Notes: generated from the sequence alone by a model not told the origin. Counted from the stretch's first letter, positions 84-38,546 are shown. The stretch is 47,473 nt of DNA from a virus (IMGVR_UViG_3300031134_000639), one strand, 5' to 3'. Program-made: numbers and translations.

Positions 84-980
84 ATGTGTAGGACCAAAGA
101 ACTTGGCGGTAGACGCTGTCCTCAACACACTGACCCTGTGAAGCACGCTGCGTATAACGCTCGCCGCCGTGAGTTGTATGCTGCTAAGAAAAACCAGAAG
201 TCGTCTACTCAACCGCTTGAATCTCTTCTCCCTGCGATACACAAAACGCGTGTGTATGGTGTTACTGAAAACTCAAGGTACACTCAGGAGGCTGAAGAAT
301 ACTATGAGAAGATGAAAAAAGAGACTCTGACCGCTTTGAACTCAGATGACTTCTATGTACAAATTATGCTGGATGAACATGATGAACCTGACGAGCTAAT
401 GTCCCTCAACGGTTACAGCACGTCAGGGTATCAAACAATTCGTTCTTACCTTTCACATCCTGATTCCTTTGAGCCTTCTGCCTCTGCAAAGCTAGATAAA
501 ACCATAAAAGGCATTGACTCAGCCATTGAACGTGCGCCTAAAGTTGAACCTCGTCTACTGTACAGAGGAATTAAGATCCCTGCGTTTGTTGAAGATGAAA
601 ACGTTTCGTCATGGGTTGAAGAAAAGTTCCCCGTAGGAGAAGTTATTGCTCAGGATAACTATGTTTCCACAAGCGTTAACCCGTATATGGCCTCATATTT
701 TGGTGAAACCAACTACAATGCTGAAGCCCAGCGTTCCATTCTCATGGAAATTGTTTCTTCCAACGGAGCGCCTTTGGGGGAGGATATATCAGCAAACGCT
801 CACGAACGTGAAATCCTTCTGTCAAGGAAATCCAGATTCAAGATCGTTGCTGTCCACGAGAATGCTGAAGTGCGCATAAATGAAAACATCCTAGGGGCAG
901 GCAAAGGATTTGAATCTGTCAAACCGTTTACTCTCATCCAAGTTGTTGACATAACAGAAAATCAGTACTCTGATTCTTGA
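84..980 (+). CDS. ART1: tagged mono-ADP-ribosyltransferase (VIP2/C2/C3-like)
   Basis: Tag MCRTKELGGRRCPQH; LYRG, YVSTS, HEREILL; SD GGAGG upstream. Confidence 0.9.
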   Translation: MCRTKELGGRRCPQHTDPVKHAAYNARRRELYAAKKNQKSSTQPLESLLPAIHKTRVYGVTENSRYTQEAEEYYEKMKKETLTALNSDDFYVQIMLDEHDEPDELMSLNGYSTSGYQTIRSYLSHPDSFEPSASAKLDKTIKGIDSAIERAPKVEPRLLYRGIKIPAFVEDENVSSWVEEKFPVGEVIAQDNYVSTSVNPYMASYFGETNYNAEAQRSILMEIVSSNGAPLGEDISANAHEREILLSRKSRFKIVAVHENAEVRINENILGAGKGFESVKPFTLIQVVDITENQYSDS

Positions 981-1002
981 CGAGTAGAATAACATCCAAA
1001 CT

Positions 1003-1014
1003 CCGATAGTAATA
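1003..1014 (+). promoter_or_regulatory. CCGATAGTAATA motif, putative phage-specific promoter
   Basis: Exact motif in the gap before ART2; recurs before ART3, ART8, ART14 and ART21. Confidence 0.7.
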
Positions 1015-1045
1015 GCTGTATACCGCAGTCTTAGGAGTCCATGCA

Positions 1046-1945
1046 ATGTGTCGTAGCAAAGAGTTGGGTGGGCGTCGTTGCCCTCAACATACCGACCCTA
1101 CAAAACGTTCTGCGTATAACGCCCGTAGGCGTGAACTGTACGCTTTACGAAAAGCGATTCTAAAGGTTTCACCAGCTGATGCAAGAGAACAACTTCTTTT
1201 GTCTCCTGACGAACCACGCTTGTACACCAACGAAGTTCATGCCGCTGCGTTCATAAAAGAAGCACATGAGTACTATGAGCTAATGATGGAGCAAACTAAG
1301 ACTAAGCTGGGTTCAAAGGATCTTCCTAGCTTGGGCGAAGACTTTGAGTACACAGATGAACCAGATGAGCTACTTGCGTTACATAAATACAGTTCTGATG
1401 GCTACAGGACAATCCGAGAGTATCTTAACGGCAACCTAGCTGCCACTGCCCCGTGGTTGGATGAGAGTAAACTGGAAGCAGAAGTGCAGGGTCTTGACTC
1501 TGCGCTTGAACGTGCACCCGAAGTGGAACCACGTTTACTGTATCGTGGCATTAGGATAACAAGTGACATTCCCAAAGATGAGGTGTCAGGTTGGCTTGCT
1601 GAGAACTTCCCTGTTGGTGGGGTAGTCAGCCAAGCTAACTATGTTTCCACTAGTGTGCACCCTCAGATTGCTGCTAACTTCAGTGATGGTGTGTGGTCAG
1701 ATGACGGCAAGAAGTCTATTGTCATGGAGATTGTCTCCTCAAATGGTGCACCACTAGGGCATGAGATATCTGCTAACCCTGGTGAGTCAGAGGTTCTGCT
1801 TCCTAGGAACTCAAGGTTCAAAGTAGTTGCCGTCCACGAGAACAGCCTTTTCCATGTGAATGACCCGAAGGCGAGTTATGATAACGACTTGTACAGCAAT
1901 GTAACTCTCATCCAAGTAGTTGACGTTACAAACGAAGCTGAATAG
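1046..1945 (+). CDS. ART2: tagged mono-ADP-ribosyltransferase
   Basis: Tag; LYRG, YVSTS, GESEVLL; looks closest to ART1 (DEPDEL, ERAPxVEPRLLYRGI, MEIVSSNGAPLG). Confidence 0.9.
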   Translation: MCRSKELGGRRCPQHTDPTKRSAYNARRRELYALRKAILKVSPADAREQLLLSPDEPRLYTNEVHAAAFIKEAHEYYELMMEQTKTKLGSKDLPSLGEDFEYTDEPDELLALHKYSSDGYRTIREYLNGNLAATAPWLDESKLEAEVQGLDSALERAPEVEPRLLYRGIRITSDIPKDEVSGWLAENFPVGGVVSQANYVSTSVHPQIAANFSDGVWSDDGKKSIVMEIVSSNGAPLGHEISANPGESEVLLPRNSRFKVVAVHENSLFHVNDPKASYDNDLYSNVTLIQVVDVTNEAE

Positions 1946-1955
1946 TATACGTAGT

Positions 1956-1983
1956 TGTCCCCAGAAGAAAACCGATAGTAATA
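1956..1983 (+). promoter_or_regulatory. TGTCCC...CCGATAGTAATA putative promoter of the ART3-ART5 unit
   Basis: TGTCCC 1956-1961, CCGATA 1972-1977. Confidence 0.7.
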
Positions 1984-2014
1984 TCTGGTACCCATTCTTC
2001 ATCGGAGTTTTCTT

Positions 2015-2848
2015 ATGTGTCGCAGTATAGAACTTGGCGGACGACGTTGTCCTTCACACAGTGACCCGTCCGCCACAGCCGCATACAATGCCGTCCGTCG
2101 TCAACGATATGCTGAAGCGAAGAAAACTGGTTCTCCCGTTCTATCTGCTGACTACGATTTCACTCCTCTAGACCAGATGAAGCAACTAGGGGTAACTGAC
2201 CCTAAATTCGTTGAGTTCGTTGACCAAGCTAAAGAGTTCATAGATAAAGTCTACTCTAAAAATTCCAAAGCTAAAACACCTGAAGCAAAAGCTGTCTACG
2301 CTTACACAAACTTGAACTACATTGACATTAGACACCGTATCTACGGAGGTGAGCTTATACATGAGCAGAATGCCTCCAAAGTAGATGCCATGATAGGTAA
2401 CATTGATACTGCTCTTTTGAAAGCTACCCCGCCTGACGAACCGCGTGAACTCTACCGTGGTGTAAGCCTACCTGACCATGTGGCACCTGAAGATGTTAAC
2501 TCATATTTGGCTGAAAATTTCCCTACCGGTGGGGTAATCAGCCAGAAGAACTTCATGTCAACTAGCTTGTCTCCTTCTTTGGCTTCCACCTTTATGGAAA
2601 AAAACCAGAAGCGCTCCAATGGGGTTCTTATTCAGATACTAAGCAAGAAAGGTGCGCCTTTAGGAGGAAAGCTCTCCTGCTTAGGCAACGGAGAAATGGA
2701 AGTGCTGATGCCCCGTGAAGCTAAATTCAAGGTAGCCGAGGTGGTCACAGATATCAAACCAAACGCTGATCCTCATTCTACCGGTAAGCTAGCTCAGATT
2801 ACGCACATTATTCGCTTAGTTGATGTTACAGATGAGGACGAAAGCTGA
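2015..2848 (+). CDS. ART3: tagged mono-ADP-ribosyltransferase
   Basis: Tag MCRSIELGGRRCPSH; LYRG, FMSTS, GEMEVLM. Confidence 0.9.
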   Translation: MCRSIELGGRRCPSHSDPSATAAYNAVRRQRYAEAKKTGSPVLSADYDFTPLDQMKQLGVTDPKFVEFVDQAKEFIDKVYSKNSKAKTPEAKAVYAYTNLNYIDIRHRIYGGELIHEQNASKVDAMIGNIDTALLKATPPDEPRELYRGVSLPDHVAPEDVNSYLAENFPTGGVISQKNFMSTSLSPSLASTFMEKNQKRSNGVLIQILSKKGAPLGGKLSCLGNGEMEVLMPREAKFKVAEVVTDIKPNADPHSTGKLAQITHIIRLVDVTDEDES

Positions 2849-3714
2849 TGTGCCGTACTAAAGAATTGGGTGGAAGACGTTGCCCACAACACACTGACCC
2901 TGTGAAACACGCAGCATATAACGCTCGTCGTCGTGAACTGTACGCTGCCAAAAAGGTTAAGCCTGTTGAAGAGTTCGCATACACGTTTCCTCCTCTTGAT
3001 GTGATTCGCAGGGAGGCCTCTGCTGAGGAGTGGCAGGCATATTGCGAAGACCGCAACAACTTCTCTAACATTATCAACCCTGGCTGGGACGCTGAAGACT
3101 CTAAATGGTCTGACAAAAGATGGGATAGCGCTAAGTGGAAGCCAGAGAAGGCCAAGCTTGATGCAGTTCTATTCTACACAGACGATGGGTTCCCAGAAGT
3201 TCGTAGTTACCTTGAAGGGCTAAACGACCCTGTAGCATTCCACAGCGATGAATATTATGAGAAAGTAGTGAGGAACCTTGACCTTGTCGTCTCTAAAGCA
3301 AAACCGCCTGAGCAGCCACGACGTTTGTACCGTGGTCTTAGCATGCCTAAAGAGCTTGAAGGTGAGCAGGTTGACCAATGGATTGATGAAAGATTCCCTG
3401 TTGATGGCATCATCTCCCAGAAGAACTACATGTCTACGTCTTTGTCTCCAGAGTCAGCTGTTGACTTCTCAAACGTAGACTCTGGAGACTACAGAGAAGG
3501 TAAAGCTGTTGTCTTTGAGATAATGTCTAAGCAGGGTGCTCCCATTGGTGATGGCGTGTCATATCATCAGAACTCTGAACGCGAAGTCCTGATGCCTCGC
3601 AACGCACGATTTAAAGTTGTTGGTGTGCATAAGAAAGTTGTCTTCAATAGCACAGCTTTCATTGCTAAAAGAAATTACGAACACACAGTCATTCAGCTAG
3701 TGGATGCAAGTTAG
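2848..3714 (+). CDS. ART4: tagged mono-ADP-ribosyltransferase
   Basis: Tag; LYRG, YMSTS, SEREVLM; TGATG overlap with ART3. Confidence 0.9.
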   Translation: MCRTKELGGRRCPQHTDPVKHAAYNARRRELYAAKKVKPVEEFAYTFPPLDVIRREASAEEWQAYCEDRNNFSNIINPGWDAEDSKWSDKRWDSAKWKPEKAKLDAVLFYTDDGFPEVRSYLEGLNDPVAFHSDEYYEKVVRNLDLVVSKAKPPEQPRRLYRGLSMPKELEGEQVDQWIDERFPVDGIISQKNYMSTSLSPESAVDFSNVDSGDYREGKAVVFEIMSKQGAPIGDGVSYHQNSEREVLMPRNARFKVVGVHKKVVFNSTAFIAKRNYEHTVIQLVDAS

Positions 3715-3724
3715 GGAGTAGAAA

Positions 3725-4594
3725 ATGTGTCGCACCAAAGAACTTGGCGGGCGTCGTTGCCCTCAGCATACGGATCCTGTAAAACATGCAGCTTACAATG
3801 CTCGTCGCCGTGAACTTTACGCTGAGAAAAAGAAAGTGATGCTGCCTCCTCTAGAAGAGGCTACCACAGCAGAATACGTGTTTCCTCCTCTAGAAGAAGT
3901 ACGCGCTGAACCGTCTAGTTACGATTTGGAATTCTACCGCCAGGATAGGGCTGATTTCTCTAACTCAATCAACCCTGGCTGGGATGCTGATGACTCTACT
4001 TGGGTCCACCATAGGGTTCGTGGACCATGGAAGCCGGAGACAGACAAAAGAGACTCTGTGTTGTACTACACAGATGAGGGCTACAGGGAGATAAGGGACT
4101 ATCTGAACGGTAAAACTGTCACGAAGCCTGATGAGGTGAACGCTATTATGTCTAACCTTGACTCAGCACTTGAGCAAGCTAAGCCACCTGTGGAGCCTCG
4201 TAGGCTTTATCGTGGACTTACTCTTCCTCATGACTTTGAACCTAATCAAGTTCAAGACTGGCTTGGAGAGAACTTCCCCGTAGGCGGTGTCATCAGTCAA
4301 AAGAATTATATGTCAACAACATTGTCCCCAAATGCAGCTGTAGAATTCTCTAAGGCTTATAACAATGACTACAACAATGGCAAGGCTGTCATTTTTGAGA
4401 TCATGTCCAAACAGGGTGCTCCGGTCGGTGAGGGTTTGTCTTATCATGATGATCGCGAACTTGAAGTCCTCATGAAGAGAAACGCCCGGTTTAAAGTTGT
4501 TGCCGTGCACTCGGTAGTCAGTTTTCACAGTAAAAGCTATATTTCAACTAAGAACCTTGACTACACTGTTATCCAGTTGGTTGATGCTGACTAG
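3725..4594 (+). CDS. ART5: tagged mono-ADP-ribosyltransferase
   Basis: Tag; LYRG, YMSTT, RELEVLM; shares FSNxINPGWDAxDSxW with ART4. Confidence 0.9.
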   Translation: MCRTKELGGRRCPQHTDPVKHAAYNARRRELYAEKKKVMLPPLEEATTAEYVFPPLEEVRAEPSSYDLEFYRQDRADFSNSINPGWDADDSTWVHHRVRGPWKPETDKRDSVLYYTDEGYREIRDYLNGKTVTKPDEVNAIMSNLDSALEQAKPPVEPRRLYRGLTLPHDFEPNQVQDWLGENFPVGGVISQKNYMSTTLSPNAAVEFSKAYNNDYNNGKAVIFEIMSKQGAPVGEGLSYHDDRELEVLMKRNARFKVVAVHSVVSFHSKSYISTKNLDYTVIQLVDAD

Positions 4595-4666
4595 GTGAGA
4601 GGCCATATGACCCTCCAGCAGCCTCTGTGCCGGTCGCTGACAAGCTGAAAGAGGGTTCTCGCCCAC

Positions 4667-4678
4667 CCGTAAGTAATA
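4667..4678 (+). promoter_or_regulatory. Variant motif CCGTAAGTAATA upstream of ART6
   Basis: Differs from CCGATAGTAATA only by AT to TA at two adjacent positions; lies in the 144-bp gap before ART6. Confidence 0.45.
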
Positions 4679-4738: not shown

Positions 4739-5668
4739 ATGTGCAGACCCAAAGAGCTTGGCGGTCGTCGCTGTCCTCAACACACTGACCCTGTGAAGCA
4801 CGCTGCGTACAATGCACGACGTAGGGAGTTATATGCTCAGGGCAAAAGGACACCGGAAGCGGTTATCGCTGCTTTTGACTATAGTTTCCCTGCTATGGAT
4901 GCTTTGCGTGTTAATTTGACTAATGAAGAAGAAACTAGAAGGATTGAAAATGCAGTTGCCTTAGCTAAGAAGATAATCCCAGGTTACGATTATCAGGAAG
5001 CTCAAGATGTGCTTTGGTCAGCCGACCACAGAGATTACCAAAGAGATCTAGAGCCTAACCAGGCTTTACTGTTCTACACAGGCGGTCAGTACCGCCTTGT
5101 TCGTAAAGTTATTTTGAATCCTACAAATAAGCTTGATGGTAAAAAGATAATGGTAGATGAAGACTTCCGGTGGATGCAGAGGACATTGACAACAATGGAC
5201 TCCGCAATAGCTGCCGCTGAGGAGCCAGAAGAACCTCGTTTAGTGTATCGCGGAATGAGATTAGATCCCAATGCATCTGATGAGGAGATAGATGCAATGG
5301 TAGACAAAGGGTTCCCTGTAGGCGGCGTGATAAGCCAGGAGAATTACATGTCTACCACCCAGAAGCCTTCTGTTGCTTACCTTCACTTTGGTGACGGGTT
5401 TACTAACAAAAGTGGCGCAGATTCTAAACGTTCTGTTGTGATGGAAATAATGACACGTAAAGGCGCACCGCTAACGTACGGTACTTCCATGTTTCAGGAC
5501 ACGGAGAAAGAAATTCTTATGCCTCGCAATATGAAGCTGAAAATAGTTTCCGTAGACAAAGATGTTGACGTTCAAGTTGAAGGCAGGTATGAGGAAACAA
5601 TAACGGTGAAACGCACAGTTATCCGATTAATTGATGTAGAAGATGACTTAGGAGTAAGCAATGTGTAG
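4739..5668 (+). CDS. ART6: tagged mono-ADP-ribosyltransferase
   Basis: Tag; VYRG, YMSTT, TEKEILM. Confidence 0.9.
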   Translation: MCRPKELGGRRCPQHTDPVKHAAYNARRRELYAQGKRTPEAVIAAFDYSFPAMDALRVNLTNEEETRRIENAVALAKKIIPGYDYQEAQDVLWSADHRDYQRDLEPNQALLFYTGGQYRLVRKVILNPTNKLDGKKIMVDEDFRWMQRTLTTMDSAIAAAEEPEEPRLVYRGMRLDPNASDEEIDAMVDKGFPVGGVISQENYMSTTQKPSVAYLHFGDGFTNKSGADSKRSVVMEIMTRKGAPLTYGTSMFQDTEKEILMPRNMKLKIVSVDKDVDVQVEGRYEETITVKRTVIRLIDVEDDLGVSNV

Positions 5669-6527
5669 AACCGGTGGAAGACGTTGCCCGTCACATAGCG
5701 ACCCTAAAATGGTTACAGAGCGTAACGCCCGACGCCGCGCTGCATATGCTGCTAAAGTTAGCAATGTCATACCTGCTCCGGTATATAATTTCCCTTCAAT
5801 AACGGAGAGTCTGCCGTACATGGATGGTGAAGGAAACAGCCCCGAAGAGAAACAATTCTTCGCTGACCAGAAAGCCTTCTTCGACCTTGTTGACCCTGAC
5901 GCTATCACTGTGCCAGCAGAGAACGAAGACCGAGATCTCACAGAGGAAGAAGCTGAGGAAGCTCGTCTTCGCCATGAAGAGTTCTATACTCTTCGTGACT
6001 ACACTGAGGACAGCTTCAATGATGTGAGAGAGTACCTTATTGACGGTGATATCTTCAATAACGTGGACCATGAAAAGACGGTGGCAAGTCTTGACCGTGC
6101 TATTGCAAAAGCCACCCCTCCTAAGGAGGACCGTGTCCTGTATCGTGGACTGGCTATCCCCGCTGATGTTATAGACGATGAAAGAGTTGACAGTTGGTTG
6201 GAGGAGCGCTTCCCTGTCGGTGGAGTAATCAGCCAGAAAAACTACATGTCAACTAGCGTCAGTCCCTCTGTAGCGAATAATTTCAGTGAGTGGAATAGCT
6301 CAACAGATGACGATGGCATAATCATGCAGATTCTATCCAAAAAAGGTGCACCACTTGGTTTAGGTACATCATACCGTGGCTTAGAAGAAATGGAAGTCCT
6401 CATCCCCCGTGATGCAAAGTTCAAGGTAGTTGAAGTTATCAGGAACACACCGTATGACATTGTTAAGGGTACCAGGACTGTCAGTGAAGAGCGTAAGACA
6501 ATAATCAGGGTTGTTGACGCTAGCTGA
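5661..6527 (+). CDS. ART7: mono-ADP-ribosyltransferase with short tag
   Basis: Short tag MCRTGGRRCPSH; LYRG, YMSTS, EEMEVLI; 8-nt overlap with ART6. Confidence 0.9.
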   Translation: MCRTGGRRCPSHSDPKMVTERNARRRAAYAAKVSNVIPAPVYNFPSITESLPYMDGEGNSPEEKQFFADQKAFFDLVDPDAITVPAENEDRDLTEEEAEEARLRHEEFYTLRDYTEDSFNDVREYLIDGDIFNNVDHEKTVASLDRAIAKATPPKEDRVLYRGLAIPADVIDDERVDSWLEERFPVGGVISQKNYMSTSVSPSVANNFSEWNSSTDDDGIIMQILSKKGAPLGLGTSYRGLEEMEVLIPRDAKFKVVEVIRNTPYDIVKGTRTVSEERKTIIRVVDAS

Positions 6528-7178: not shown

Positions 7179-7210
7179 TGTCCCCTCAGCAGAGAAAACC
7201 GATAGTAATA
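7179..7210 (+). promoter_or_regulatory. TGTCCC...CCGATAGTAATA putative promoter of the ART8-ART13 unit
   Basis: TGTCCC 7179-7184, CCGATA 7199-7204. Confidence 0.7.
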
Positions 7211-7239: not shown

Positions 7240-8118
7240 ATGTGTAGAGCCGGTGGAAGACGCTGCCCGTCTAGTAGCGACCCTGCACTTGCAGCTGACC
7301 GGAACAAGCGCAGGCGAGACCTTTACGCTTCCAAGAAAAGCATGTTTGGCGTAACACAGTTCCCATCTTTGAATGAGAACCACCCATTTGTTGACATTAA
7401 TGGCGACTCACCTGAAGCCTTAGCTTACAAGCAGGCAACAAGAGAATACGTTCAGGCTATAAGAGACCATTATCATGGTAACCCGGTGAAGATAGAGGAG
7501 ATAGAATCCGCTGTCGGTTACTATACTGTTGACGGGTACGAAGAAATTCGTGATTACCTGAACAACTACCAAGTAGCTTCTTCAGGCAAAGAAAAACGTG
7601 TTGTTTACCTTCCTGAAGAGCTAGAGTTTCTGTCTCAACAGATTGAGATTTTAGATGATGTTCTTAAACTCTCCCCTAAGCCATCCGAATCACGTCTACT
7701 GTACCGTGGGCTGGTTGTGCCTCGCAATGTTAGCGAAGCTGACGTAGACAACTGGGCTGAAGATAAGTTCCCGGTCGGAGGGGTTATCAGCCAAAAGAAC
7801 TACATGTCCACCACAGCAAATGCTTCCACTGCATTGTATGAGTTCGCAAGTGATTCCTCCGACCGTTCTGTTATTTTTGAGATCCTTTCCAAAGAAGGTG
7901 CACCTTTAGGCGATGGGTTATCTTATCAAGGAGACTCTGAGATGGAAGTGCTCATGCCGAGGGAAACAAAATTCAAGGTTGTTTCAGTAGACAAAAATGT
8001 AGCTTATGAGAGTGAACAAAAAGCTCATTCTTACGGGCTTGGTGGCCCTCCAGTGTATGAGAAAGAAACAAGGATAGTCACAGTTATTCGTTTGATAGAT
8101 GCAGGAGATGCTAGCTGA
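7240..8118 (+). CDS. ART8: mono-ADP-ribosyltransferase with short tag
   Basis: MCRAGGRRCPSS; LYRG, YMSTT, SEMEVLM; the second of two tandem ATGs matches the paralog starts. Confidence 0.9.
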   Translation: MCRAGGRRCPSSSDPALAADRNKRRRDLYASKKSMFGVTQFPSLNENHPFVDINGDSPEALAYKQATREYVQAIRDHYHGNPVKIEEIESAVGYYTVDGYEEIRDYLNNYQVASSGKEKRVVYLPEELEFLSQQIEILDDVLKLSPKPSESRLLYRGLVVPRNVSEADVDNWAEDKFPVGGVISQKNYMSTTANASTALYEFASDSSDRSVIFEILSKEGAPLGDGLSYQGDSEMEVLMPRETKFKVVSVDKNVAYESEQKAHSYGLGGPPVYEKETRIVTVIRLIDAGDAS

Positions 8119-28361: not shown

Positions 28362-28392
28362 TGTCCCCTCTTAAGGAAAACCGATAGTAATA
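28362..28392 (+). promoter_or_regulatory. TGTCCC...CCGATAGTAATA putative promoter opening ART array 2
   Basis: TGTCCC 28362-28367, CCGATA 28381-28386. Confidence 0.7.
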
Positions 28393-30183: not shown

Positions 30184-31112
30184 TGTGTCGCACTAAAGAG
30201 CTTGGCGGGAGACGCTGTCCTCAACATACCGACCCTATAAAACATGCTGCATATAACGCTCGTCGTCGTGAGTTGTATGCAGCCAGGAAATTTCAGAGGA
30301 GTGCTTCCACCAACTTGTATGAGTTTCCACCTGTAGACGCTTTCCGAAGCTTCACTAAAGGAGATCAGAAACGTCATGAGAAGGAAAGCGAAAAGTTCGC
30401 AGCCACAATCGTTGAAGGGTATAATCTAGCGGAAGCAAAAGAGGGAAGATGGAATAGCATCAACTCCAAAAACGGCTGTGAGACTTCTAGAGCTTTTATA
30501 CAGTATACAAGTTCAAGTTACCGTGCTTTGCGTGACTTTAACAACCCTAGGCTAAAAGATGATAAGTATGCTGGCGTTTGGAACAACTCCAACAAAGATA
30601 ACTCTGAGAAGCTTCAGAAGATAACTGATTTGTTAGATGCTGCTCTAGCTAAAGCTGAGAAACCTGACGCACCCCGAAGGTTATGGAGAGGAATGCAAAT
30701 AAATCTGAATGTGCCGAAAGAAGAGATTGCAAGTTATCTAGAAGAACGTTTCCCTGTTGGCGGTGTTATCAGCCAAGGAAACTTTATGTCTACCAGCATG
30801 GATGCCCAGCAGGCAATCGCTTTTTCACAGGGTTGGGATAAAGATTATAACAACACAGTTGAGCATAGTATTTTGCTTGAGATTCTTTCACGTGAGGGCG
30901 CTCCTTTAGGTTATGCAACATCAGTTTTCAACGTTGAAGAAGCAGAGACACTTGTGCCAAGAAATGCTAGGTTTAAGGTTGTTTCTATTGACCACAACCA
31001 GGAGGTAGAATACGAAACTAGTTCGCTTTCAGGGCAAAAAGGTAAAAGCAAAGCCTCACGAACAGTGATTCGTCTAATTGACGCAGTAGATGAAGCTGAT
31101 GTGCAGAAGTAA
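30183..31112 (+). CDS. ART16: tagged mono-ADP-ribosyltransferase
   Basis: Tag; LWRG, FMSTS, EEAETLV. Confidence 0.9.
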   Translation: MCRTKELGGRRCPQHTDPIKHAAYNARRRELYAARKFQRSASTNLYEFPPVDAFRSFTKGDQKRHEKESEKFAATIVEGYNLAEAKEGRWNSINSKNGCETSRAFIQYTSSSYRALRDFNNPRLKDDKYAGVWNNSNKDNSEKLQKITDLLDAALAKAEKPDAPRRLWRGMQINLNVPKEEIASYLEERFPVGGVISQGNFMSTSMDAQQAIAFSQGWDKDYNNTVEHSILLEILSREGAPLGYATSVFNVEEAETLVPRNARFKVVSIDHNQEVEYETSSLSGQKGKSKASRTVIRLIDAVDEADVQK

Positions 31113-32043
31113 AGAACTGGGTGGGCGCAGGTGTCCAGCGCATACTGACCCGCAGAAAATTGCTGCATATAATACTGTCCGCCGTCAACGATATGCAGCT
31201 CAAAAACAAATAAACGGTGAAGATCGTCCAGACGAAACTTTTGTTCTAAAAGCTGATGAAGAGTATGGTTTCAGACCCTTCAAAGAAAATCGTGCTACGT
31301 TCCTTTTGGATAGCGTAGAAGGTCAACAGTGGCTTAAGGATGCAGATGTGTTCGCTGAAGCTGTTGATGCTACAGAAGAAGGTGCGAATCTGAAGCCCTG
31401 GCAGTATAGGGTTGACATGCAGACTTCTTTGAGAGCTTACACACAATATGAATACAGCAACATCAAAAGTTACCTGCATGGTCAGAACATGAACGGTAAC
31501 TTGGAGACGATTGAGCCGGTTCCTATGGAAGATGACCAGGTTAAATACACGGTAGAAAAAATGCATCTCATTGACGAAGCCTTAGAGCATGCTGCTGCGC
31601 CAGAATCTGAGAGAGCCTTATACAGAGGAATGCGCGTTCCGAACTGGGTCGACTCTGACCAAATCAAACCTTGGATTCATGAGAACTTCCCTGTTGGTGG
31701 GGTGGTTTCACAGAAAAGCTTTATGTCAACAAGCATGAATCCAACTTTAACAGTTGGTATGTTCAGCGTATCTAAGACGCCCAATGGTAGAGACTCAAAA
31801 GATTCTGACCGTAGTGTTGTCATTGAGATTATGTCTAAGCAGGGTGCTCCTCTGGGTGAACTGTTATCTGAACATGGGAACGACGAAACTGAAATTCTGA
31901 TGCCAAGAGATGCTAAGTTTAGGGTTGTCTCAGTTCATGAGGACGTTCGGTATCTGAGCATGAAACAAAGCCATTATGAGATGAGCGGTATCAAAAGGCC
32001 AAGGCACACTCGCACTGTGGTTCGCCTAATTGATGCAAGTTAA
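31099..32043 (+). CDS. ART17: tagged mono-ADP-ribosyltransferase
   Basis: Start moved to ATG 31099; LYRG, FMSTS, DETEILM. Confidence 0.9.
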   Translation: MCRSKELGGRRCPAHTDPQKIAAYNTVRRQRYAAQKQINGEDRPDETFVLKADEEYGFRPFKENRATFLLDSVEGQQWLKDADVFAEAVDATEEGANLKPWQYRVDMQTSLRAYTQYEYSNIKSYLHGQNMNGNLETIEPVPMEDDQVKYTVEKMHLIDEALEHAAAPESERALYRGMRVPNWVDSDQIKPWIHENFPVGGVVSQKSFMSTSMNPTLTVGMFSVSKTPNGRDSKDSDRSVVIEIMSKQGAPLGELLSEHGNDETEILMPRDAKFRVVSVHEDVRYLSMKQSHYEMSGIKRPRHTRTVVRLIDAS

Positions 32044-32049: not shown

Positions 32050-32074
32050 TGTCCCCTTGAAGACAAAACCGATA
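32050..32074 (+). promoter_or_regulatory. TGTCCC...CCGATA putative promoter of the ART18-ART20 unit
   Basis: TGTCCC 32050-32055, CCGATA 32069-32074. Confidence 0.65.
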
Positions 32075-32111
32075 GATATGAGTAATACGTTGTTTGACAA
32101 GAAGGAACCTC

Positions 32112-33101
32112 ATGTGCAGAACTAAAGAGTTAGGTGGGCGTCGTTGCCCTCAACATACTGACCCTGTGAAGCATGCTGCATACAACGCTCGTCGTCGTGA
32201 GTTGTATACTGCTAAGAAAACTCAGAGTGAAGAGGCTAAGGCTGAGGCTGAGGAACAGCCTCTTCACTCTGGCGCATATAAGGTTTCTATAGACAAACTA
32301 GACCAGCCGCGATGGTTCCTAACTAAAGAACATCATGAAGCTGAAGTGAAAAACTCTGAAGAGTACCTAAAAATCCTGCGAGAACAACAGTTAATTCGTG
32401 AGCAGCATGACCCAGATGCTACTGGTCTAACAGCAGCCATCTATGATTGGACAGCCTTAGACTCTCCTCAGATTAGAAACTACCTGAACGGTTATGATGT
32501 TGGCATGTTTGGTATGCAGAAAAGGCAGCCGTTTACTTACGATGCAGAGTCAACTCGTTACTATCAGGACAAAGTTGATACGATGGACGAAGCCCTAAGT
32601 CTCGCCCCTGTACCAGCCGAACCTAGAACAGTCTGGCGTGGCATAAGACTCCCGACACTCCAATCATCAGAGCCACTAGCTGAGTGGGCTGAGAAACATT
32701 TCCCTGTCGGTGAAGTGATAAGCCAAAAGTCTTATATGTCAACAACTTTAGACCCGATGATGGCAAACACACGCTTTACAACAAGCGCAACTCAGGCTCC
32801 TGGAATAATCATGGAGATAAAGACCAAAAAAGGTGCTGTCCTTTTGAATAACGACCTGACTGAATGGTCAGATGAGTCAGAACTGTTACTCCCCCGCGAT
32901 GCTAAATTCAAAATTGTGAAAGTAACACATGACACTAAGTTCTATACTGTAAGTAAACACTCTAAGCACAGTACAGAGAACATGCCTAGCGCAGAAGAGC
33001 TTGAAAAGAACCCAGAGAACATGGACTATCTTCTTAAGAAGAGAATTATTCTTGTCCAACTTGTTGATGCTGACGCGGAAGTAGAGGAAACTGATGTGTA
33101 G
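32112..33101 (+). CDS. ART18: tagged mono-ADP-ribosyltransferase
   Basis: Start moved to ATG 32112; VWRG, YMSTT, DESELLL. Confidence 0.9.
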   Translation: MCRTKELGGRRCPQHTDPVKHAAYNARRRELYTAKKTQSEEAKAEAEEQPLHSGAYKVSIDKLDQPRWFLTKEHHEAEVKNSEEYLKILREQQLIREQHDPDATGLTAAIYDWTALDSPQIRNYLNGYDVGMFGMQKRQPFTYDAESTRYYQDKVDTMDEALSLAPVPAEPRTVWRGIRLPTLQSSEPLAEWAEKHFPVGEVISQKSYMSTTLDPMMANTRFTTSATQAPGIIMEIKTKKGAVLLNNDLTEWSDESELLLPRDAKFKIVKVTHDTKFYTVSKHSKHSTENMPSAEELEKNPENMDYLLKKRIILVQLVDADAEVEETDV

Positions 33102-34077
33102 AACTAAAGAGTTAGGCGGGCGTCGTTGCCCTCAACACACTAACCCTGTAAAACATGCTGCATATAACGCTCGCCGCCGCGAGCTTTATGCTGCTAAGAA
33201 AACTCAGACTAAAGAGGCTAAGGCTGAAGATCAGCCTCTTCACTCTGGCGCGTACAAGGTCTCTATAGACAAACTAGACCAGCCGCGATGGTTCCTAACT
33301 AAAGAACAGTATCATATTGAAAATAAAAACTCTGAAGAATACGAAAAGCTGTTGAATGAGCAACAACTAATCCGTAAGCAGGATAACCCACTTAGTCCTG
33401 ATTTAGTATCAGCTGTATACGACTGGACTGCTCTAAGCTCTCCTGAAATTAGAGACTACCTTAACGGCTACGATGTTGGCGTGTTCGGTATGCAAAAAAA
33501 GCAGCCAATTGTCTACGGTGAACAGCGTGCTCGTTATATGCAGGAGAAAGTAGACGCTCTTGATGCAGCGCTTAAAGTTGCTCCTGAGCCAGATGAGCCT
33601 AGAACAGTTTGGCGAGGTATAAGGCTTCCTGTACTTCAATCACAAAGGCCCTTGTCCGAGTGGGCTGATGAGCACTTCCCTGTTGGCGAAGTTATAAGTC
33701 AGAAGTCTTTTATGTCAACGACTTTAGACCCTGCGCTGGCGAATACACGTTTCACATCAAGTGATTCTGAGGCTCCTGGAATAATCATGGAGATAAAGAC
33801 CAAAAAAGGAGCAGTTATCATGACCTCTGCACTCAGTGAGTGGGCAGATGAGTCAGAGGTGCTGATTCCCCGTGACGCTAGATTCAAAGTTGCTAAAGTG
33901 ACACACAACACTAGGTTCTACACCCGAAACTTGGAGTGCGAATACAGCAGAGAGGACATGCCAAGCATGGAGGAACTTGAACAGGACTCAAAAAACACAA
34001 AATACTTGCTTAAGAAGAACATAATTCTTGTTCAACTTGTTGATGCTGACGCGGAAGTAGAGGAAACTGATGTGTAG
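33094..34077 (+). CDS. ART19: tagged mono-ADP-ribosyltransferase, recent duplicate of ART18
   Basis: VWRG, FMSTT, DESEVLI; colinear and highly similar to ART18 throughout. Confidence 0.9.
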   Translation: MCRTKELGGRRCPQHTNPVKHAAYNARRRELYAAKKTQTKEAKAEDQPLHSGAYKVSIDKLDQPRWFLTKEQYHIENKNSEEYEKLLNEQQLIRKQDNPLSPDLVSAVYDWTALSSPEIRDYLNGYDVGVFGMQKKQPIVYGEQRARYMQEKVDALDAALKVAPEPDEPRTVWRGIRLPVLQSQRPLSEWADEHFPVGEVISQKSFMSTTLDPALANTRFTSSDSEAPGIIMEIKTKKGAVIMTSALSEWADESEVLIPRDARFKVAKVTHNTRFYTRNLECEYSREDMPSMEELEQDSKNTKYLLKKNIILVQLVDADAEVEETDV

Positions 34078-35005
34078 AACCGGTGGAAGACGCTGTCCGT
34101 CTAGCAATGACCCTACGTTAGTTGCCGCTCGTAACGCGCGCCGCAGAGAAGCATATGCCTCCCGTAAAGTAGTGTCAGCGCCTGCGCAAGTGCCATTGAA
34201 GAGCGCAGAGGAATATGGGTTCCAGCCTGTCATAGAGAAGCGTCAGGAGAGTGACATAGCTGAGATGAACAAAGAAAGCAAAAGAGAGCTAGCCGAACTG
34301 TCAGCTGATGAATTAGGTGCAGTCAAGATCTTTACTGGTCCAGCGCATAAATGGATAAATAATGCTTTGTTCGGCAGGAACAACAGTATACATGATGGTG
34401 ACCAGCTTCCTGAAGGACACTCAGGAAGAAATGAAGTTACTTTTGACACGCTAGACAACGTAGGCAACCCTTCTCTCCAGAATCTATTTAAAGTTGTAGA
34501 TAAGCTTGACAGCGCATTAGCTTCCCATAGTTCTAAAGAGCGTATCGTATACCGAGGTAAGAGTTCCAGAAGTTACCGCATACAGAAAGAAGGTGTTTCT
34601 GCATATGTTGATAAAAACTACAGTCTAGGTCAGGAAGTTGTATTTGATGGGTACCAGTCGACATCTTCGTCACCCATGTCAGCTTTGGATTTTGCAGACT
34701 ACAGTGATGGGATAATATTTGAGATGAAAACTGTTTCCGGTTTGAATATCATCTCAAATTCTGATATGCAAGAAGAACAGGAAATTCTTCTTCCCCGTCA
34801 GACACGATGGAAAGTTGTGGGTGTAGAGAAAAACATTCGCTACCGTGCACAGTTTGACTCAGATAATATGACTGTTGTTCAGATGGTTGAAATTGATGAA
34901 ACTGGTAAGGAACTTAAAGAAAGGCAGCTGCCTCAACCTTTGACCCATTCTCAGATACAGAAAACAATTTCAACTGAGGTGGTAGACCCGTGGGTGTCCC
35001 ACTAG
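34070..35005 (+). CDS. ART20: short-tag ADP-ribosyltransferase with a divergent catalytic domain
   Basis: MCRTGGRRCPSS; INNAL helix, VYRG, YQSTS, EEQEILL; lacks the F-P-[VTI]-[GD]-x-[VI]-[VI]-[SA]-[QH] segment and the GA[PSV]-type motif of the others. Confidence 0.88.
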   Translation: MCRTGGRRCPSSNDPTLVAARNARRREAYASRKVVSAPAQVPLKSAEEYGFQPVIEKRQESDIAEMNKESKRELAELSADELGAVKIFTGPAHKWINNALFGRNNSIHDGDQLPEGHSGRNEVTFDTLDNVGNPSLQNLFKVVDKLDSALASHSSKERIVYRGKSSRSYRIQKEGVSAYVDKNYSLGQEVVFDGYQSTSSSPMSALDFADYSDGIIFEMKTVSGLNIISNSDMQEEQEILLPRQTRWKVVGVEKNIRYRAQFDSDNMTVVQMVEIDETGKELKERQLPQPLTHSQIQKTISTEVVDPWVSH

Positions 35006-35022
35006 TCAAACCCGATAGTAAT
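34995..35022 (+). promoter_or_regulatory. TGTCCC...CCGATAGTAAT putative promoter of the ART21-ART24 unit
   Basis: TGTCCC 34995-35000 (inside the ART20 3' end), CCGATA 35012-35017. Confidence 0.65.
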
Positions 35023-35051
35023 GAACAGTAACTTTCATCTGGAGATTAAGT

Positions 35052-35978
35052 ATGTGTAGGACCAAAGAACTAGGCGGTAGACGCTGCCCACAGCACACCG
35101 ACCCCGTTAAACATGCTGCATATAACGCTCGCAGGCGTGAATTGTATGCTCTAAACAAAGCACAGAAAACGGAATCACCCGAGTCCAAGTTCATTCCAGT
35201 CAACCAAGTCCGCACGTATTATCAGGCCTACCAGGATGACAAAGTTTCTCCTCTAGATGAGACAACCCAAAAATTTGTTGATGAAGCTAAAGCTTTCACG
35301 CTTTCTATCAACCCGGACTTCAAAGAAAGTCACTGGATGGACCAGGACTACTACGACTTTGATGAAGCAGACGGAGAAATGAGTCCTGCAAGGTCGCTGA
35401 TCTACTATACAGAGACTGGATACAATCATATGAGGAATATCCTCAACGCTGGTACACCAGCTGACCTGTCTGGTAGGATGCAACGCGAGAAAGCATGGGA
35501 AGACTGGAACAAAACTACCATCGGCGTTATTGACAAAACTATTGCCCGTGCATCAGAACCAGAAGAACCACGCTTGCTGTTCCGTGGAATGCGTGTCCCA
35601 CTTTCTATTCACGCAACCTCAGTAGACAATTGGCTTGACGAAAACTTCCCTGTCGGTGGCATTGTCAGTCAGAAGTCTTACATGTCAACCACCATGAACG
35701 CTGCCACTGCATTGCGAAATTTCGGTAAAGACTACCATGATGAAAACCGTGCTATCATCATGGAAATTGTTTCCAAGAAAGGTGCTCCGCTTGGCCCTGG
35801 CACCTCAGCTTACGGTTTCCAGGAGATGGAAGTACTAATGGCAAGGGAATCCAAATTCAAGATTGTCAACGTAATCAAGGATGTTCAGTACGGTGCTGTT
35901 GACGGTGATAACGTAAAAGTAGAAGGAAAAGTTACTATCATACGCTTAGTTGACATGGCAGATGAGGACAACAGCTGA
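35052..35978 (+). CDS. ART21: tagged mono-ADP-ribosyltransferase
   Basis: Tag; LFRG, YMSTT, QEMEVLM. Confidence 0.9.
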   Translation: MCRTKELGGRRCPQHTDPVKHAAYNARRRELYALNKAQKTESPESKFIPVNQVRTYYQAYQDDKVSPLDETTQKFVDEAKAFTLSINPDFKESHWMDQDYYDFDEADGEMSPARSLIYYTETGYNHMRNILNAGTPADLSGRMQREKAWEDWNKTTIGVIDKTIARASEPEEPRLLFRGMRVPLSIHATSVDNWLDENFPVGGIVSQKSYMSTTMNAATALRNFGKDYHDENRAIIMEIVSKKGAPLGPGTSAYGFQEMEVLMARESKFKIVNVIKDVQYGAVDGDNVKVEGKVTIIRLVDMADEDNS

Positions 35979-36820
35979 TGTGTAGACCTAAAGAATTGGG
36001 TGGCCGTCGCTGCCCACAGCACACTGACCCTATGAAACATGCTGCGTATAACGCTCGTCGCCGCGAGTTGTACCATATAAGTAAAAATGACGTTTCTACT
36101 GCTTTTCCTCTTCTCGACTCAGTTCGGTTGAAAATGAAGGACAACAAAAAAGCTTTACAGAGGTGGACTGATGAACAGATGGAGTTCACCAAGAAAATTA
36201 ACCCAAGCTACACTCCAGAAAGCTGGGAGAGCCATCGGGATGATACTAGCAATTGGCAAGAAACACAGTCTGAAGCTGACGCAATACTTCACTACTCTGA
36301 TTATGGATACAAGCGTATTTCACGCTATTTTAACGACCAAAACTCAGGAATTGAACCTGAAGAAATAGAACCAGTCCTAAGTCAACTTGATTCTGCTTTA
36401 TCTAAAGCAGACAGGCCAGAGGAGCCTCGTTTGCTATATCGTGGGGTGCATCTGGCAGAGCTAAATAACGCGGATTGGGTTGACCGAAATTTCCCTGTCG
36501 GGAAGGTAATCAGTCAGAAGAATTATATGTCAACAAGCTTTGACCCAGAAATTGGTTTAACCTTTGCAGGAAATGGTTCTCTTGTACTAGAAATACTCAG
36601 TAAGCAAGGTGCGCCTATTGGCGAGGGGCTTTCCTACTATGGCTCCGATGAACATGAAGTCCTTATGCCTCGTGAAACAAAGTTCAAGGTGGTGGCAGTC
36701 CACCATGGAGTTTCCTTTAAAGTAAAAGATCAATCTGTTCACCAGCAAGATCAGACCCCTCACGTCACAGTCGTACAACTTGTTGACGCAGACAACGAAG
36801 AAACAGGAGAAGTAAACTGA
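35978..36820 (+). CDS. ART22: tagged mono-ADP-ribosyltransferase
   Basis: Tag; LYRG, YMSTS, DEHEVLM. Confidence 0.9.
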   Translation: MCRPKELGGRRCPQHTDPMKHAAYNARRRELYHISKNDVSTAFPLLDSVRLKMKDNKKALQRWTDEQMEFTKKINPSYTPESWESHRDDTSNWQETQSEADAILHYSDYGYKRISRYFNDQNSGIEPEEIEPVLSQLDSALSKADRPEEPRLLYRGVHLAELNNADWVDRNFPVGKVISQKNYMSTSFDPEIGLTFAGNGSLVLEILSKQGAPIGEGLSYYGSDEHEVLMPRETKFKVVAVHHGVSFKVKDQSVHQQDQTPHVTVVQLVDADNEETGEVN

Positions 36821-37671
36821 TGTGTAGGCCTAAAGAATTGGGTGGCCGTCGCTGCCCTCAACACACTGACCCCGTGAAGCATGCTGCATATAACGCGCGC
36901 CGCCGCGAACTGTACGCTGAGAAGAATACGGCTCCTGCCACTAAAGTTGAGTTTGCTCCAGCAGGTGAACTACGGGAGAACTTCCTGACTAACGAGCCTG
37001 CCCTAAAACAGTGGTTTAAGGACTCTGAAAGCTTCAGAGACAAAATCGTACCAAACTACTCTGAAAAAGAATGGCTTGAATATAGGGATGATGAAGACCT
37101 GTGGAAACCTAGCGAATCTAAACAGGATGCAGTCATGTACTACACAGACTACGGCTTCAAAGAAATCCGCCAGTATTTGAACTATTCTACACCTGAGCGT
37201 AAAGCAAACCTGGAACCTATCATGGGTTTAATTGACTCTGTACTAGCTGAAGCTGAACCACCTAAAGACCCACGAATCCTCTACCGTGGCTTAAGTCTTT
37301 CGGTGCCAGACAAAAAACAGTGGGCTGAGAAACATTTTCCTGTTGGCGGTATAGTCAGTCAGAAAAACTACATGTCTACAACATTAAATCCGATTGTCAG
37401 TATGGACTTTGCGTCAGCATTCACATGGACTGAAGGTGAAGACTCTGTAATCTTTGAAATCCTCAGTAAGCAGGGTGCACCAATCGGACCAGGTTTAGGT
37501 TACCAGAGGTTCACTGAATATGAAGTGCTGATGCCCAGGGAAACAAAGTTTAAGGTAGCAGCTATTCACCATGACGTACCGTTTGGTGCTAAAGGGCAGG
37601 ACACTGCATACAAAAATGTGCGAGCTACCGTGATTCAACTTATTGATGTTGACGAAGAAGGAGACAACTAA
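36820..37671 (+). CDS. ART23: tagged mono-ADP-ribosyltransferase
   Basis: Tag; LYRG, YMSTT, TEYEVLM. Confidence 0.9.
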   Translation: MCRPKELGGRRCPQHTDPVKHAAYNARRRELYAEKNTAPATKVEFAPAGELRENFLTNEPALKQWFKDSESFRDKIVPNYSEKEWLEYRDDEDLWKPSESKQDAVMYYTDYGFKEIRQYLNYSTPERKANLEPIMGLIDSVLAEAEPPKDPRILYRGLSLSVPDKKQWAEKHFPVGGIVSQKNYMSTTLNPIVSMDFASAFTWTEGEDSVIFEILSKQGAPIGPGLGYQRFTEYEVLMPRETKFKVAAIHHDVPFGAKGQDTAYKNVRATVIQLIDVDEEGDN

Positions 37672-38546
37672 TGTGTAGGCCTAAAGAATTGGGTGGCCGT
37701 CGCTGCCCTCAACACACTGACCCCGTGAAGCACGCTGCATATAACGCTCGCAGGCGTGAGGTTTACGCTCAGAAGAAAACGGTTTCAACTCCGGTAGACG
37801 ATGCTGTGACGCGAGCATTCCCTCCGCTTTCTGAACCACGCTCTGTCCCATCAATAGTAAACAATGAGTTAGATAATTTTTATGATGAGTCAAACGACTT
37901 TCGTGACCTCGTATGGCCTGAATATGACGAAGACGAATGGGAGTACCTGGCTAGCTCCGAAAACTGGGTTCCCGAAAATTCACCAGCTGAAGCAATTCAA
38001 CATTATACTAGCCATGGCTACAAAGAATACCGAACTTATAGTCTGGGTAAAATGAAACCTAGCAATATTATGAATGTGACCGCTCAGGCTGTTGCTCACA
38101 TGGACAATGCAATCCAAAGTTGTCCACCGCCAGCTGAGCCTAGAAGAGTCTACAGAGGACTAAGAATCCCCACTGAAATGATGGACGGCGGAAGTCCAGA
38201 AGAGTACATGGAAGAACATTTTCCTATTGGCGGGGTTGTAAGCCAAGAGAGTTTTATGTCAACAAGCTTACACCCAAATATTGCCTATGAGTTCACACGC
38301 TATGGCGCAATGAAAGACGTTCCTGTGCTGTTTGAGATTGTAAGTAAACAGGGTGCTCCTATCGGGGATGGTCTCACCACATCATCTCATGAGTATGAAG
38401 TTATCATGCCGAGGAAAGCTAAATTCAAGGTAGTTGGAGTGCATCATAACGCTAATTTCTCCGCTGTCCAAAAAACTTTCAGAGAACCAGAAACAAACAC
38501 TTACAAGAACATAACAGTCATTCAACTCATGGATGTGAGCGAATAA
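37671..38546 (+). CDS. ART24: tagged mono-ADP-ribosyltransferase
   Basis: Tag; VYRG, FMSTS, HEYEVIM. Confidence 0.9.
   Translation: MCRPKELGGRRCPQHTDPVKHAAYNARRREVYAQKKTVSTPVDDAVTRAFPPLSEPRSVPSIVNNELDNFYDESNDFRDLVWPEYDEDEWEYLASSENWVPENSPAEAIQHYTSHGYKEYRTYSLGKMKPSNIMNVTAQAVAHMDNAIQSCPPPAEPRRVYRGLRIPTEMMDGGSPEEYMEEHFPIGGVVSQESFMSTSLHPNIAYEFTRYGAMKDVPVLFEIVSKQGAPIGDGLTTSSHEYEVIMPRKAKFKVVGVHHNANFSAVQKTFREPETNTYKNITVIQLMDVSE

Follow-up and report, generated by a model that had tools for sequence, protein, structure and literature searches.

ADP-ribosyltransferases (ARTs) are a classic tool with which phages take over their hosts, and known phages carry one to few of them. In T4 these are Alt, a head-packaged and injected protein with an N-terminal leader, and the products of the adjacent paralogs modA and modB, which are made de novo after infection; all three are phage-encoded R-S-ExE enzymes, as are the proteins described here. 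We analysed the 47,473-nt viral sequence IMGVR_UViG_3300031134_000639 (this whole stretch is called the window below), which encodes 24 ART paralogs in two tandem arrays, each with the same short N-terminal tag, and together with its flanks the same genome carries at least 42 copies, compared with three in T4. Phage ARTs that modify the host are known, and what is new here is the size of the repertoire and an undescribed, portable N-terminal module. Literature searches gave no description of such an ART array or tag, in agreement with a first-pass annotation, made from the sequence alone, which had noted no described system of this size and architecture: an overview of jumbo phages speaks of 'several ARTs' only and calls a ~35-copy zinc-ribbon expansion in phage G unprecedented (PMC7824862), a 2022 survey of viral NAD+ systems does not contain the words 'expansion' or 'paralog' (PMC9503650), and a 2026 review mentions ARTs in passing only (PMC13282480).

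The 24 ART genes (p01 to p24) are intact open reading frames (ORFs) on the plus strand that encode 277–335 amino acids (aa), 13 of them at 84–12609 and 11 at 28427–38546, and the two arrays together span ~22.6 kb, the sole interruption of the first array being a GNAT gene on the minus strand (6520–6978). The tag motif C-R-x(0-6)-G-G-R-R-C occurs 24 times in a six-frame scan of the window, every time at the start of an ART gene. The profile PF03496 (ADPrib_exo_Tox) matches all 24 window copies at E ≤ 0.001, and likewise all 64 members of the family alignment, which joins these copies to 40 relatives; ten copies scanned singly scored 28–69 bits, with a cut-off of 23.4 (E 1e-6 to 5e-19). Moreover, every window copy retains, in this order, the Arg of [YWF]RG, S-T-[ST] and E-x-E, and R162, S196, E244 and E246 (p04 numbering) do not vary in any of the 64 sequences. 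The arginine type of ARTT motif, known from C2, iota, VIP2 and Alt, is E-x-E, and because the copies have E-x-E rather than Q-x-E, arginine is the predicted acceptor. On profile and motif grounds the assignment of these proteins to the ART enzymes is secure, and the copies are very probably active.

An AlphaFold2 model of p04, built from the 64-sequence alignment (mean pLDDT 88, pTM 0.80), has the C3/VIP2-type ART fold, with an N-terminal helical lobe (helices at 59–76, 85–92, 103–122 and 134–149) and a split beta-sandwich. The top Foldseek matches of the model were the Vis toxin, VIP2, C3bot2, Plx2A, Certhrax, C2-I, CDTa and iota Ia (E ~1e-11), and VIA-align gave Z scores of 15–17.3 and a root-mean-square deviation of ~3 Å over 181–195 residues to Plx2A, VIP2, Ia, C3 and Certhrax. 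The aligned range, from residue 43 or 45 to residue 288, corresponds to entire C3 exoenzymes or to the catalytic domains of VIP2 and Ia, so that in the model the residues after ~43 make up one complete C3/VIP2-type ART domain and only residues 1–42 lie outside the ART fold. The first-pass annotation had described 13 + 11 paralogs over this length, each with a shared N-terminal tag, a divergent middle region and a VIP2/C2/C3-type core. ORF, Pfam and motif scans bear out the count and the tag, and profile, motifs and modelled fold agree on the core, but the middle region does not survive as a separate part, since it is the four-helix lobe of an ART domain that aligns as one. The accompanying idea that the variable region picks the targets is not supported in that form: there is no separate target-picking domain, and variation of the helical lobe and surface loops fits differing substrate choice but does not demonstrate it.

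The tag has a column entropy of 0.66 bits across the 24 copies and the beta core one of 1.84 bits, and values of 2.3–2.8 bits occur in the linker, the helical lobe, the loop after STS, the ARTT loop before E-x-E and the hairpin 261–277. Solved complexes of C3 and Ia show the ARTT loop and adjacent loops touching the substrate, and variation at such substrate-contact surfaces fits different targets for each copy, without proving them. Because the helical lobe, the ARTT loop and the surface loops differ between copies, we infer that the copies act on different sets of host proteins; that the targets are host proteins at all is probable, and the chances that each copy has a target set of its own are evenly balanced.

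C3 exoenzymes and the enzymatic parts of binary toxins (VIP2, C2-I, iota Ia and CDTa), as well as Plx2A, Certhrax and Vis, share with the copies the single-domain fold, the helical lobe, STS, the ARTT loop, ExE and PF03496, but identity to them is only 15–22%, and the proteins of the arrays have no signal peptide, adaptor domain or binding component, are encoded in tandem on a phage-like element and carry a basic tag with a Cys knuckle. Kinship to the Alt-like family phrog_802 is weak (E 1.5e-9 to 5.5e-4, with a portion of the domain covered), and neither megablast with the array nor tblastn with one ART found a match among 50,697 phage records (E ≤ 1e-3); the comparison with T4 drawn at first sight is fair as an analogy.

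The tag comprises residues 1–36 and reads M-C-R, 0 or 4 residues, G-G-R-R-C-P-x-[H/S]-x-[D/N]-P, followed by a helix around N-A-R-R-R-x-x-Y-A, with M1, C2, R3, G8, G9, R10, R11, C12, P18, N25, R28, R29 and Y32 invariant. Four copies (p07, p08, p14 and p20) have a short form that lacks K-E-L-x, and three of these (p08, p14 and p20) also lack the His. The two tag cysteines are the only ones of the protein in 17 of the 24 copies. The tag is strongly basic (mean net charge +6.6, isoelectric point (pI) 10.4), in contrast to the rest of the protein (mean charge −14, pI 5.0), and its grand average of hydropathy (GRAVY) is −1.3; a Sec, Tat or lipoprotein signal is ruled out, as the tag is very hydrophilic and has no hydrophobic stretch. 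Approximately 10–20 residues past the tag, most tagged R-S-E ARTs have a second motif, [F/Y]-x-P-[hydrophobic]-x-E-x-R, which packs against the ART domain in the p04 model. The tag has no Pfam relative, a profile search against PDB sequences gave chance-level matches only, and neither this search nor a protein-atlas look-up, in which all scores were below 0.9 and served as leads only, detected similarity to known DNA- or RNA-binding domains. The residue pattern itself suggests that the two cysteines may form a half-site for a metal shared with a partner, and that the basic helix may contact nucleic acid or an acidic surface.

The tag is conserved better than the catalytic core. Between paralogs the synonymous divergence (pS) is ~0.75, that is saturated, in tag, middle and core, the nonsynonymous divergence (pN) rises from 0.19 in the tag to 0.42 in the core and 0.59 in the middle, and the same tag peptide is encoded by differing codons in differing copies. 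Because synonymous sites are saturated in the tag as elsewhere, its conservation reflects selection on the peptide; gene conversion, recent duplication and a signal at the DNA or RNA level are ruled out as causes by the same saturation. Comparison of the window with a strain of 97.5% identity gave a pN/pS of 0.02–0.23 for all 13 orthologous pairs (by region, 0.04 in the tag, 0.06 in the core and 0.22 in the middle). Each copy is individually maintained by purifying selection, and the 13 pairs show no sign of diversifying selection at the between-strain time-scale. A tree of 42 copies is star-like with long terminal branches, and only neighbouring pairs are well supported in it (p01/p02, p04/p05, p18/p19, p22/p23, u05/u06 and d03/d04), which points to old tandem duplications. 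As a separate observation, p09 and its ortholog in the 97.5% strain (L001 14392–15306) have a protein identity of 85% and a pS of 0.27, compared with ~99% for the neighbours, and the divergent ortholog is likely an allele imported by recombination.

When 1.84 billion cluster representatives were searched with a profile built on 16 tags, 193 proteins matched at E ≤ 1e-3 (80 at E ≤ 1e-10), mostly ARTs, and nearly all matches begin at residue 1. Of the 101 representatives that lie beyond the immediate family, PF03496 is present in 81, ART-PolyVal (PF18760) in one and Zeta_toxin in one, and the others contain no Pfam domain. With the short-form tag as query, at least 10 more clusters that combine the tag with ART-PolyVal came to light, as did one further combination with a Zeta toxin, on contigs of up to 907,852, 727,572 and 344,889 bp; the sources in this search were all metagenomic, with none from NCBI or UniRef. 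A Zeta toxin and an ART-PolyVal, each with the tag, occur together on one 24-kb contig, and on a 240-kb contig the tag heads an ART-PolyVal-like protein. A family of non-ART cargo, the P0086 group, gave a mediocre model (pLDDT 63.5) with non-significant fold matches, and the weak matches, all to the ART superfamily (MbcT, diphtheria toxin and PARP), are a lead only. Judged by this distribution, the tag is a portable, cargo-independent module that occupies the extreme N-terminus of effector-type enzymes. By itself, the knuckle half (M-C-R...G-G-R-R-C-P-S-H-S-[D/N]-P) begins another protein family in Gordonia otitidis, Prescottella subtropica and on a 49.6-kb plasmid of Paenarthrobacter ureafaciens that encodes an FtsK/SpoIIIE protein; the knuckle-headed proteins are 267–345 aa long and have in common an unassigned C-terminal domain (L004 6001–7017, L006 4810–5844 and L013 8001–8801). 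The tag had no match among phage records and, among plasmids, only the weak Paenarthrobacter match. A Kiloniellaceae match from a genome scan was discarded as an out-of-frame chance match in GC-rich housekeeping DNA.

The arrays are reproduced by independent assemblies and hence are no assembly artefact. Over 10,980 nt the window is 100% identical to an ENA contig of 624,949 bp; it is collinear, at 97.5% identity, with a JGI contig of 511,644 bp, and a Logan contig matches it at 99.3% identity. The array is present in runs of nine studies of phyllosphere, plant and straw metagenomes, and in three additional runs, which belong to other studies, contigs span p14–p17 and p21–p24. A scan of IMG/VR found no relative of the array, and a JGI metagenome scan, which did not recover the known 511-kb contig, found 5 loci only. 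One contig, from run X4, joins 33047 directly to 34024 and skips 976 nt, or one p18/p19 repeat unit; p18 and p19 are 73% identical with near-identical junctions, and the gap reflects a copy-number polymorphism or else a local collapse of the assembly.

The 625-kb contig holds 6 further ART genes immediately upstream of the window start, with two pilin-like genes in between (L003 8044–9177), and 12 further ART genes ~36 kb downstream of the window end. Eleven of the latter form one row headed by a gene for an ADP-ribosylglycohydrolase (ARH, PF03747); neither array of the window contains an ARH gene. These flanks bring the total to at least 42 tagged copies within ~100 kb of the same genome, so that an arsenal of 24, as first described, is right for the window and too small as the full set. 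A different contig of the same sample (727,572 bp) has one ARH and three ARTs only, and on a 48-kb contig a single tagged ART adjoins an ARH; thus ARH genes lie beside tagged ARTs in three different elements and, because these other contigs hold few ARTs beside their ARH, the large copy number is a lineage-specific expansion of an ART-plus-ARH module.

The arrangement of the genes also bears on how they may be expressed. There are exactly five copies of the 11-mer CCGATAGTAAT in the window, and each lies 30–43 nt ahead of an ART start (p02, p03, p08, p14 and p21), and near-matches precede p06, p18, a pilin gene and ORF 25314. In five cases a second box (G-T-T-G-T-C-C-C-C or close; GTTGTCCCC) lies 10–13 nt upstream of the CCGATAGTAAT-type box, so that the promoter of the element looks two-part from its sequence. 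Within the operons, 14 junctions are 1-nt stop/start overlaps (TGATG or TAATG), and a GAGGA/AGGAG Shine-Dalgarno sequence lies within the codons of the acidic C-terminal tail of the preceding gene (for example at 2830–2850, 8100–8120 and 35960–35980). Because the Shine-Dalgarno sequence falls in the tail codons and operon-final genes have shorter and less acidic tails, the 'acidic tail' is, at least in part, a side effect of encoding the ribosome-binding site for the gene that follows. We propose that the ART genes are transcribed from ~8 copies of one predicted, element-specific promoter and are translationally coupled, and with promoter and coupling in common the ARTs are probably made together; no RNA dataset is among the sequencing runs listed as holding the array.

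Table 1. Tagged ART genes and promoter-like boxes of the window
Feature	Position	Strand	Details
ART p01	84..980	+	298 aa; tag from residue 1; PF03496 E 5e-19
ART p02	1046..1945	+	299 aa; tagged; closest paralog p01; alignment, tree, PF03496
ART p03	2015..2848	+	277 aa; tagged; PF03496 E 8e-15
ART p04	2848..3714	+	288 aa; tagged; modelled copy, AF2 pLDDT 88, Z 15-17 to C3/VIP2/Ia/Plx2A
ART p05	3725..4594	+	289 aa; tagged; 59% identity to p04; alignment, PF03496
ART p06	4739..5668	+	309 aa; tagged; alignment, PF03496
ART p07	5661..6527	+	288 aa; short-form tag (Cys2, Cys8); PF03496 E 2.5e-12
ART p08	7240..8118	+	292 aa from Met-Cys start; short-form tag without His; PF03496
ART p09	8118..8996	+	292 aa; tagged; sister-strain ortholog 85% identical; alignment
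ART p10	8996..9928	+	310 aa; tagged; PF03496 E 1.3e-6
ART p11	9915..10796	+	293 aa from Met-Cys start (ortholog likewise 293 aa); tagged; PF03496
ART p12	10796..11707	+	303 aa; tagged; alignment, PF03496
ART p13	11707..12609	+	300 aa; tagged; end of array 1; PF03496 E 2e-9
ART p14	28427..29281	+	284 aa; short-form tag; start of array 2; PF03496 E 2e-15
ART p15	29281..30183	+	300 aa; tagged; alignment, PF03496
ART p16	30183..31112	+	309 aa; tagged; alignment, PF03496
ART p17	31099..32043	+	314 aa from Met-Cys start; alternative ATG 3 codons upstream; tag scan, PF03496
ART p18	32112..33101	+	329 aa; tagged; 73% identity to p19; PF03496 E 2e-13
ART p19	33094..34077	+	327 aa; tagged; one of the p18/p19 pair absent from a run X4 contig
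ART p20	34070..35005	+	311 aa; short-form tag; most divergent copy (long branch); PF03496 E 1e-12, PF01129 E 1e-6
ART p21	35052..35978	+	308 aa; tagged; alignment, PF03496
ART p22	35978..36820	+	280 aa; tagged; PF03496 E 1e-18
ART p23	36820..37671	+	283 aa; tagged; alignment, PF03496
ART p24	37671..38546	+	291 aa; tagged; end of array 2; PF03496 E 1.5e-10
Promoter-like box CCGATAGTAAT before p02	1003..1013	+	exact; start codon 33 nt on
Promoter-like box before p03	1972..1982	+	GTTGTCCCC box upstream; two-part span 1960-1982
Promoter-like box before p08	7199..7209	+	GTGTCCCC box upstream; two-part span 7185-7209
Promoter-like box before p14	28381..28391	+	GTTGTCCCC box upstream; two-part span 28365-28391
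Promoter-like box before p18	32069..32079	+	2 mismatches; GTTGTCCCC box upstream; two-part span 32053-32079
Promoter-like box before p21	35012..35022	+	two-part span 34998-35022

The element that carries the arrays is likely a phage, as judged from its genes. An RIIA-like GHKL ATPase is encoded at 40745–42955 (+) (phrog_612, E 8e-77), and the best phage matches of this protein are all from actinophages (Microbacterium Pumpernickel, Rhodococcus Weasels2, Streptomyces BK-type and Arthrobacter Mimi/Racecar); a member of phrog_1843 is present as well. Because the RIIA-like gene is closest to actinophages and the relatives of the knuckle are actinobacterial, the host is probably a plant-associated actinobacterium. 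The G+C content of the element is 46%. Other window genes encode three type IV pilin-like proteins, two GNATs, HAD_SAK_2, YceI and a prolyl-tRNA synthetase (ProRS), and the gene content includes RNA ligase, HAD_SAK_2, NERD, dCMP deaminase and NT5C; the window contains no tRNA gene and no match to an Rfam family. With the terminase of the Microbacterium phage Pumpernickel as query, none of the best 120 of 802 matches lay on one of the giant contigs. By protein look-up, the window's own proteins are placed on two contigs, of 885,359 bp and 884,011 bp, whereas relatives with the tag lie on contigs of 907,852 and 727,572 bp. The published record for a phage genome is 841,704 bp (BF3, which differs in G+C and habitat; bioRxiv 10.1101/2025.01.14.633092), and if the contigs of 885,359, 884,011 and 907,852 bp are complete phage genomes, they would be larger than this record.

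Several neighbours of the arrays deserve mention in their own right. The three pilin-like genes (PF07963; 14814–15362, 15398–15883 and 43099–44295, all +) have a ~55-residue N-terminal segment in common (80% and 57% identity) and unrelated bodies. A second paralog family on the minus strand (12606–13208, 13212–13871, 15902–16648 and 18021–18722; 200–248 aa) has 24–31% identity between members (E 1e-4 to 3e-19) and no Pfam or PHROG match, and the product of 18021–18722 has a weak GcrA-like stretch. Besides the GNAT gene inside the first array, which is kept at the same place in sister strains, a second one (13935–14759, +) lies just after it, and GNATs and ARTs together look like a protein-modification island. 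The ProRS gene (26690–27940, −) encodes a 416-aa class II enzyme with core and anticodon-binding domain, 36–40% identical to bacterial-type ProS and shorter than typical.

For the arrays as a whole we give a slightly better than even chance to a lineage-specific expansion of arginine-directed mono-ARTs in a phage-like element of ~0.9 Mb, with the common tag routing the enzymes. Each protein would consist of a 36-residue basic module with two invariant cysteines and an Arg-rich helix, a short linker and a complete C3/VIP2-type ART domain; each copy would modify its own set of host proteins, the tag would most likely bring all enzymes to one common place, and the single ARH heading the third array would reverse or limit ADP-ribosylation. 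Injected polyvalent proteins typically contain ART-PolyVal and Zeta domains, and effectors of this polyvalent kind, from phages and from conjugative elements, were reportedly described by Iyer et al. in 2017. The ART domains of the arrays match the C-terminal ends of the head-protein families phrog_595 and phrog_16619 and also match the Alt-like phrog_802, suggesting that such cargo in cultured phages usually enters the head as a MuF-type fusion, and an estimated ~44% of phage ARTs lie in head-packaging contexts (PMC9503650). Because of these head-family matches, the ARTs in packaging contexts and the ART-PolyVal and Zeta cargo, we tentatively suggest, by analogy and at somewhat less than even likelihood, that the tag loads the ARTs into the virion, or attaches them to the incoming DNA, for ejection with the DNA and so replaces a MuF fusion or a capsid-targeting leader. 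The cargo types are those of MuF-fused and polyvalent effectors (Alt/VIP2-type ART, ART-PolyVal and Zeta toxin), but here Pfam finds the ART only, with no MuF, portal or head domain and just the 36-residue tag in their place, and each gene encodes one effector rather than many domains in one giant protein. Similarly, the T4 internal proteins with a capsid-targeting sequence and the inner-body paralogs of phiKZ-like phages combine a constant short leader with divergent bodies, in tandem clusters of large phages, but there is no sequence similarity to these leaders, and the bodies here are enzymes of one family. More doubtful is the wider proposal that the tag is a general cargo-loading signal, in which the two-Cys half-site would act as a metal clasp and the basic helix would dock on a head component or on packaged DNA, so that dozens of enzymes would be preloaded and injected together. 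If true, this would be the viral equivalent of the large effector sets that bacterial secretion systems deploy, and each of the 42 arginine-ADP-ribosyltransferases would be adapted to its own host protein.

Several observations weigh against the expansion with a routing tag, and above all against virion loading. No capsid, portal, terminase or prohead protease gene was seen in the ~110 kb read, and the ART genes are not adjacent to head genes. The tag has no similarity to the T4 capsid-targeting sequences and does not end in an L/I-x-E or S/A/G-x-E cleavage motif, and in the alignment of the 24 copies no conserved protease site, L/I-x-E included, follows it. Forty-two different cargo proteins per head would be unprecedented, the phage label draws on the RIIA-like gene and the PHROG matches, a G+C of 46% is low for most Actinomycetota, and activity, targets and expression are predictions.

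The main rival to virion loading, which we consider unlikely though by no means negligible, is that the tag is an intracellular localization or nucleic-acid-binding module, a metal knuckle with an Arg-rich helix, and that the enzymes are made after infection, like ModA and ModB of T4, and tethered to DNA, RNA, the ribosome or RNA polymerase, with nothing packaged. The charge contrast between tag and body and the Arg-rich helix would fit nucleic-acid binding equally well, as would the invariant G-G-R-R, N25, R28, R29 and Y32; moreover, the knuckle half also heads plasmid and chromosomal proteins of Actinomycetota, which have no capsid, the ART promoter box is common to non-virion genes (pilin, ORF 25314) and head genes are missing from the neighbourhood. 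Such a tether is, however, less easily reconciled with a tag that is unlike any known DNA- or RNA-binding domain and with the related ART domains of cultured phages, which are mostly fused to head proteins.

It is improbable that the ARTs are instead weapons in conflicts with other phages, plasmids or neighbouring bacteria, akin to polymorphic toxins, with ARH as a shared immunity protein. ART and ARH are known as toxin–immunity pairs (Tre1–Tri1, and a Listeria pair, PDB 8za7, whose ART chain matches the p04 model at Z 16.1), ARH adjoins tagged ARTs in three elements as in these pairs and in DraT–DraG, and a constant N-terminus with many variants recalls polymorphic toxins (PMC3482391). But one eraser would here face dozens of writers, the window arrays being without ARH, whereas polymorphic toxins have a cognate immunity gene for each toxin; no such gene or other ORF stands behind each ART, the genes abutting with 1-nt overlaps. 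Nor is there a secretion, trafficking or signal-peptide sequence (Pfam finds the ART only), the cargo is one enzyme family rather than varied toxin domains, and the orthologs are under purifying, not diversifying, selection. Slightly more improbable still is a giant plasmid-like replicon or a small-genome symbiont, rather than a virus, that exports tagged ARTs to a partner cell. The lack of virion genes in ~110 kb, contigs of 0.73–0.91 Mb that fall within the range of small bacterial genomes, the type IV pilin-like genes that flank the arrays and the ProRS gene would agree with this, but ProRS is the only housekeeping gene in the ~110 kb, tRNA and rRNA are absent from the window, an RIIA-like gene and several PHROG-only families are present, and the mix of RNA ligase, HAD_SAK_2, NERD, dCMP deaminase and NT5C is typical of a huge phage. 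Finally, although tandem paralogs with a common 110-nt 5′ segment can mislead assemblers and Logan contigs do break at the tag repeats, an assembly artefact or a graveyard of decaying duplicates was tested and is rejected, as several studies and four independent assemblies agree on the gene order, none of the 24 frames is interrupted or has lost its catalytic residues, and pN/pS is far below 1.

With at least 42 intact and individually conserved copies, this is the largest ART set found for any virus in the searches made. If each copy has its own target, the arrays would constitute a library, assembled by nature, of modifying enzymes for different bacterial proteins. The tag is a 36-residue module of several uncultivated elements of 0.2–0.9 Mb, and since its knuckle half also occurs in culturable Gordonia, Prescottella and Paenarthrobacter, part of the question is open to laboratory work. 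The binding partner of the tag could reveal how giant phages route many proteins together, and the tag itself may provide a handle for tagging cargo.

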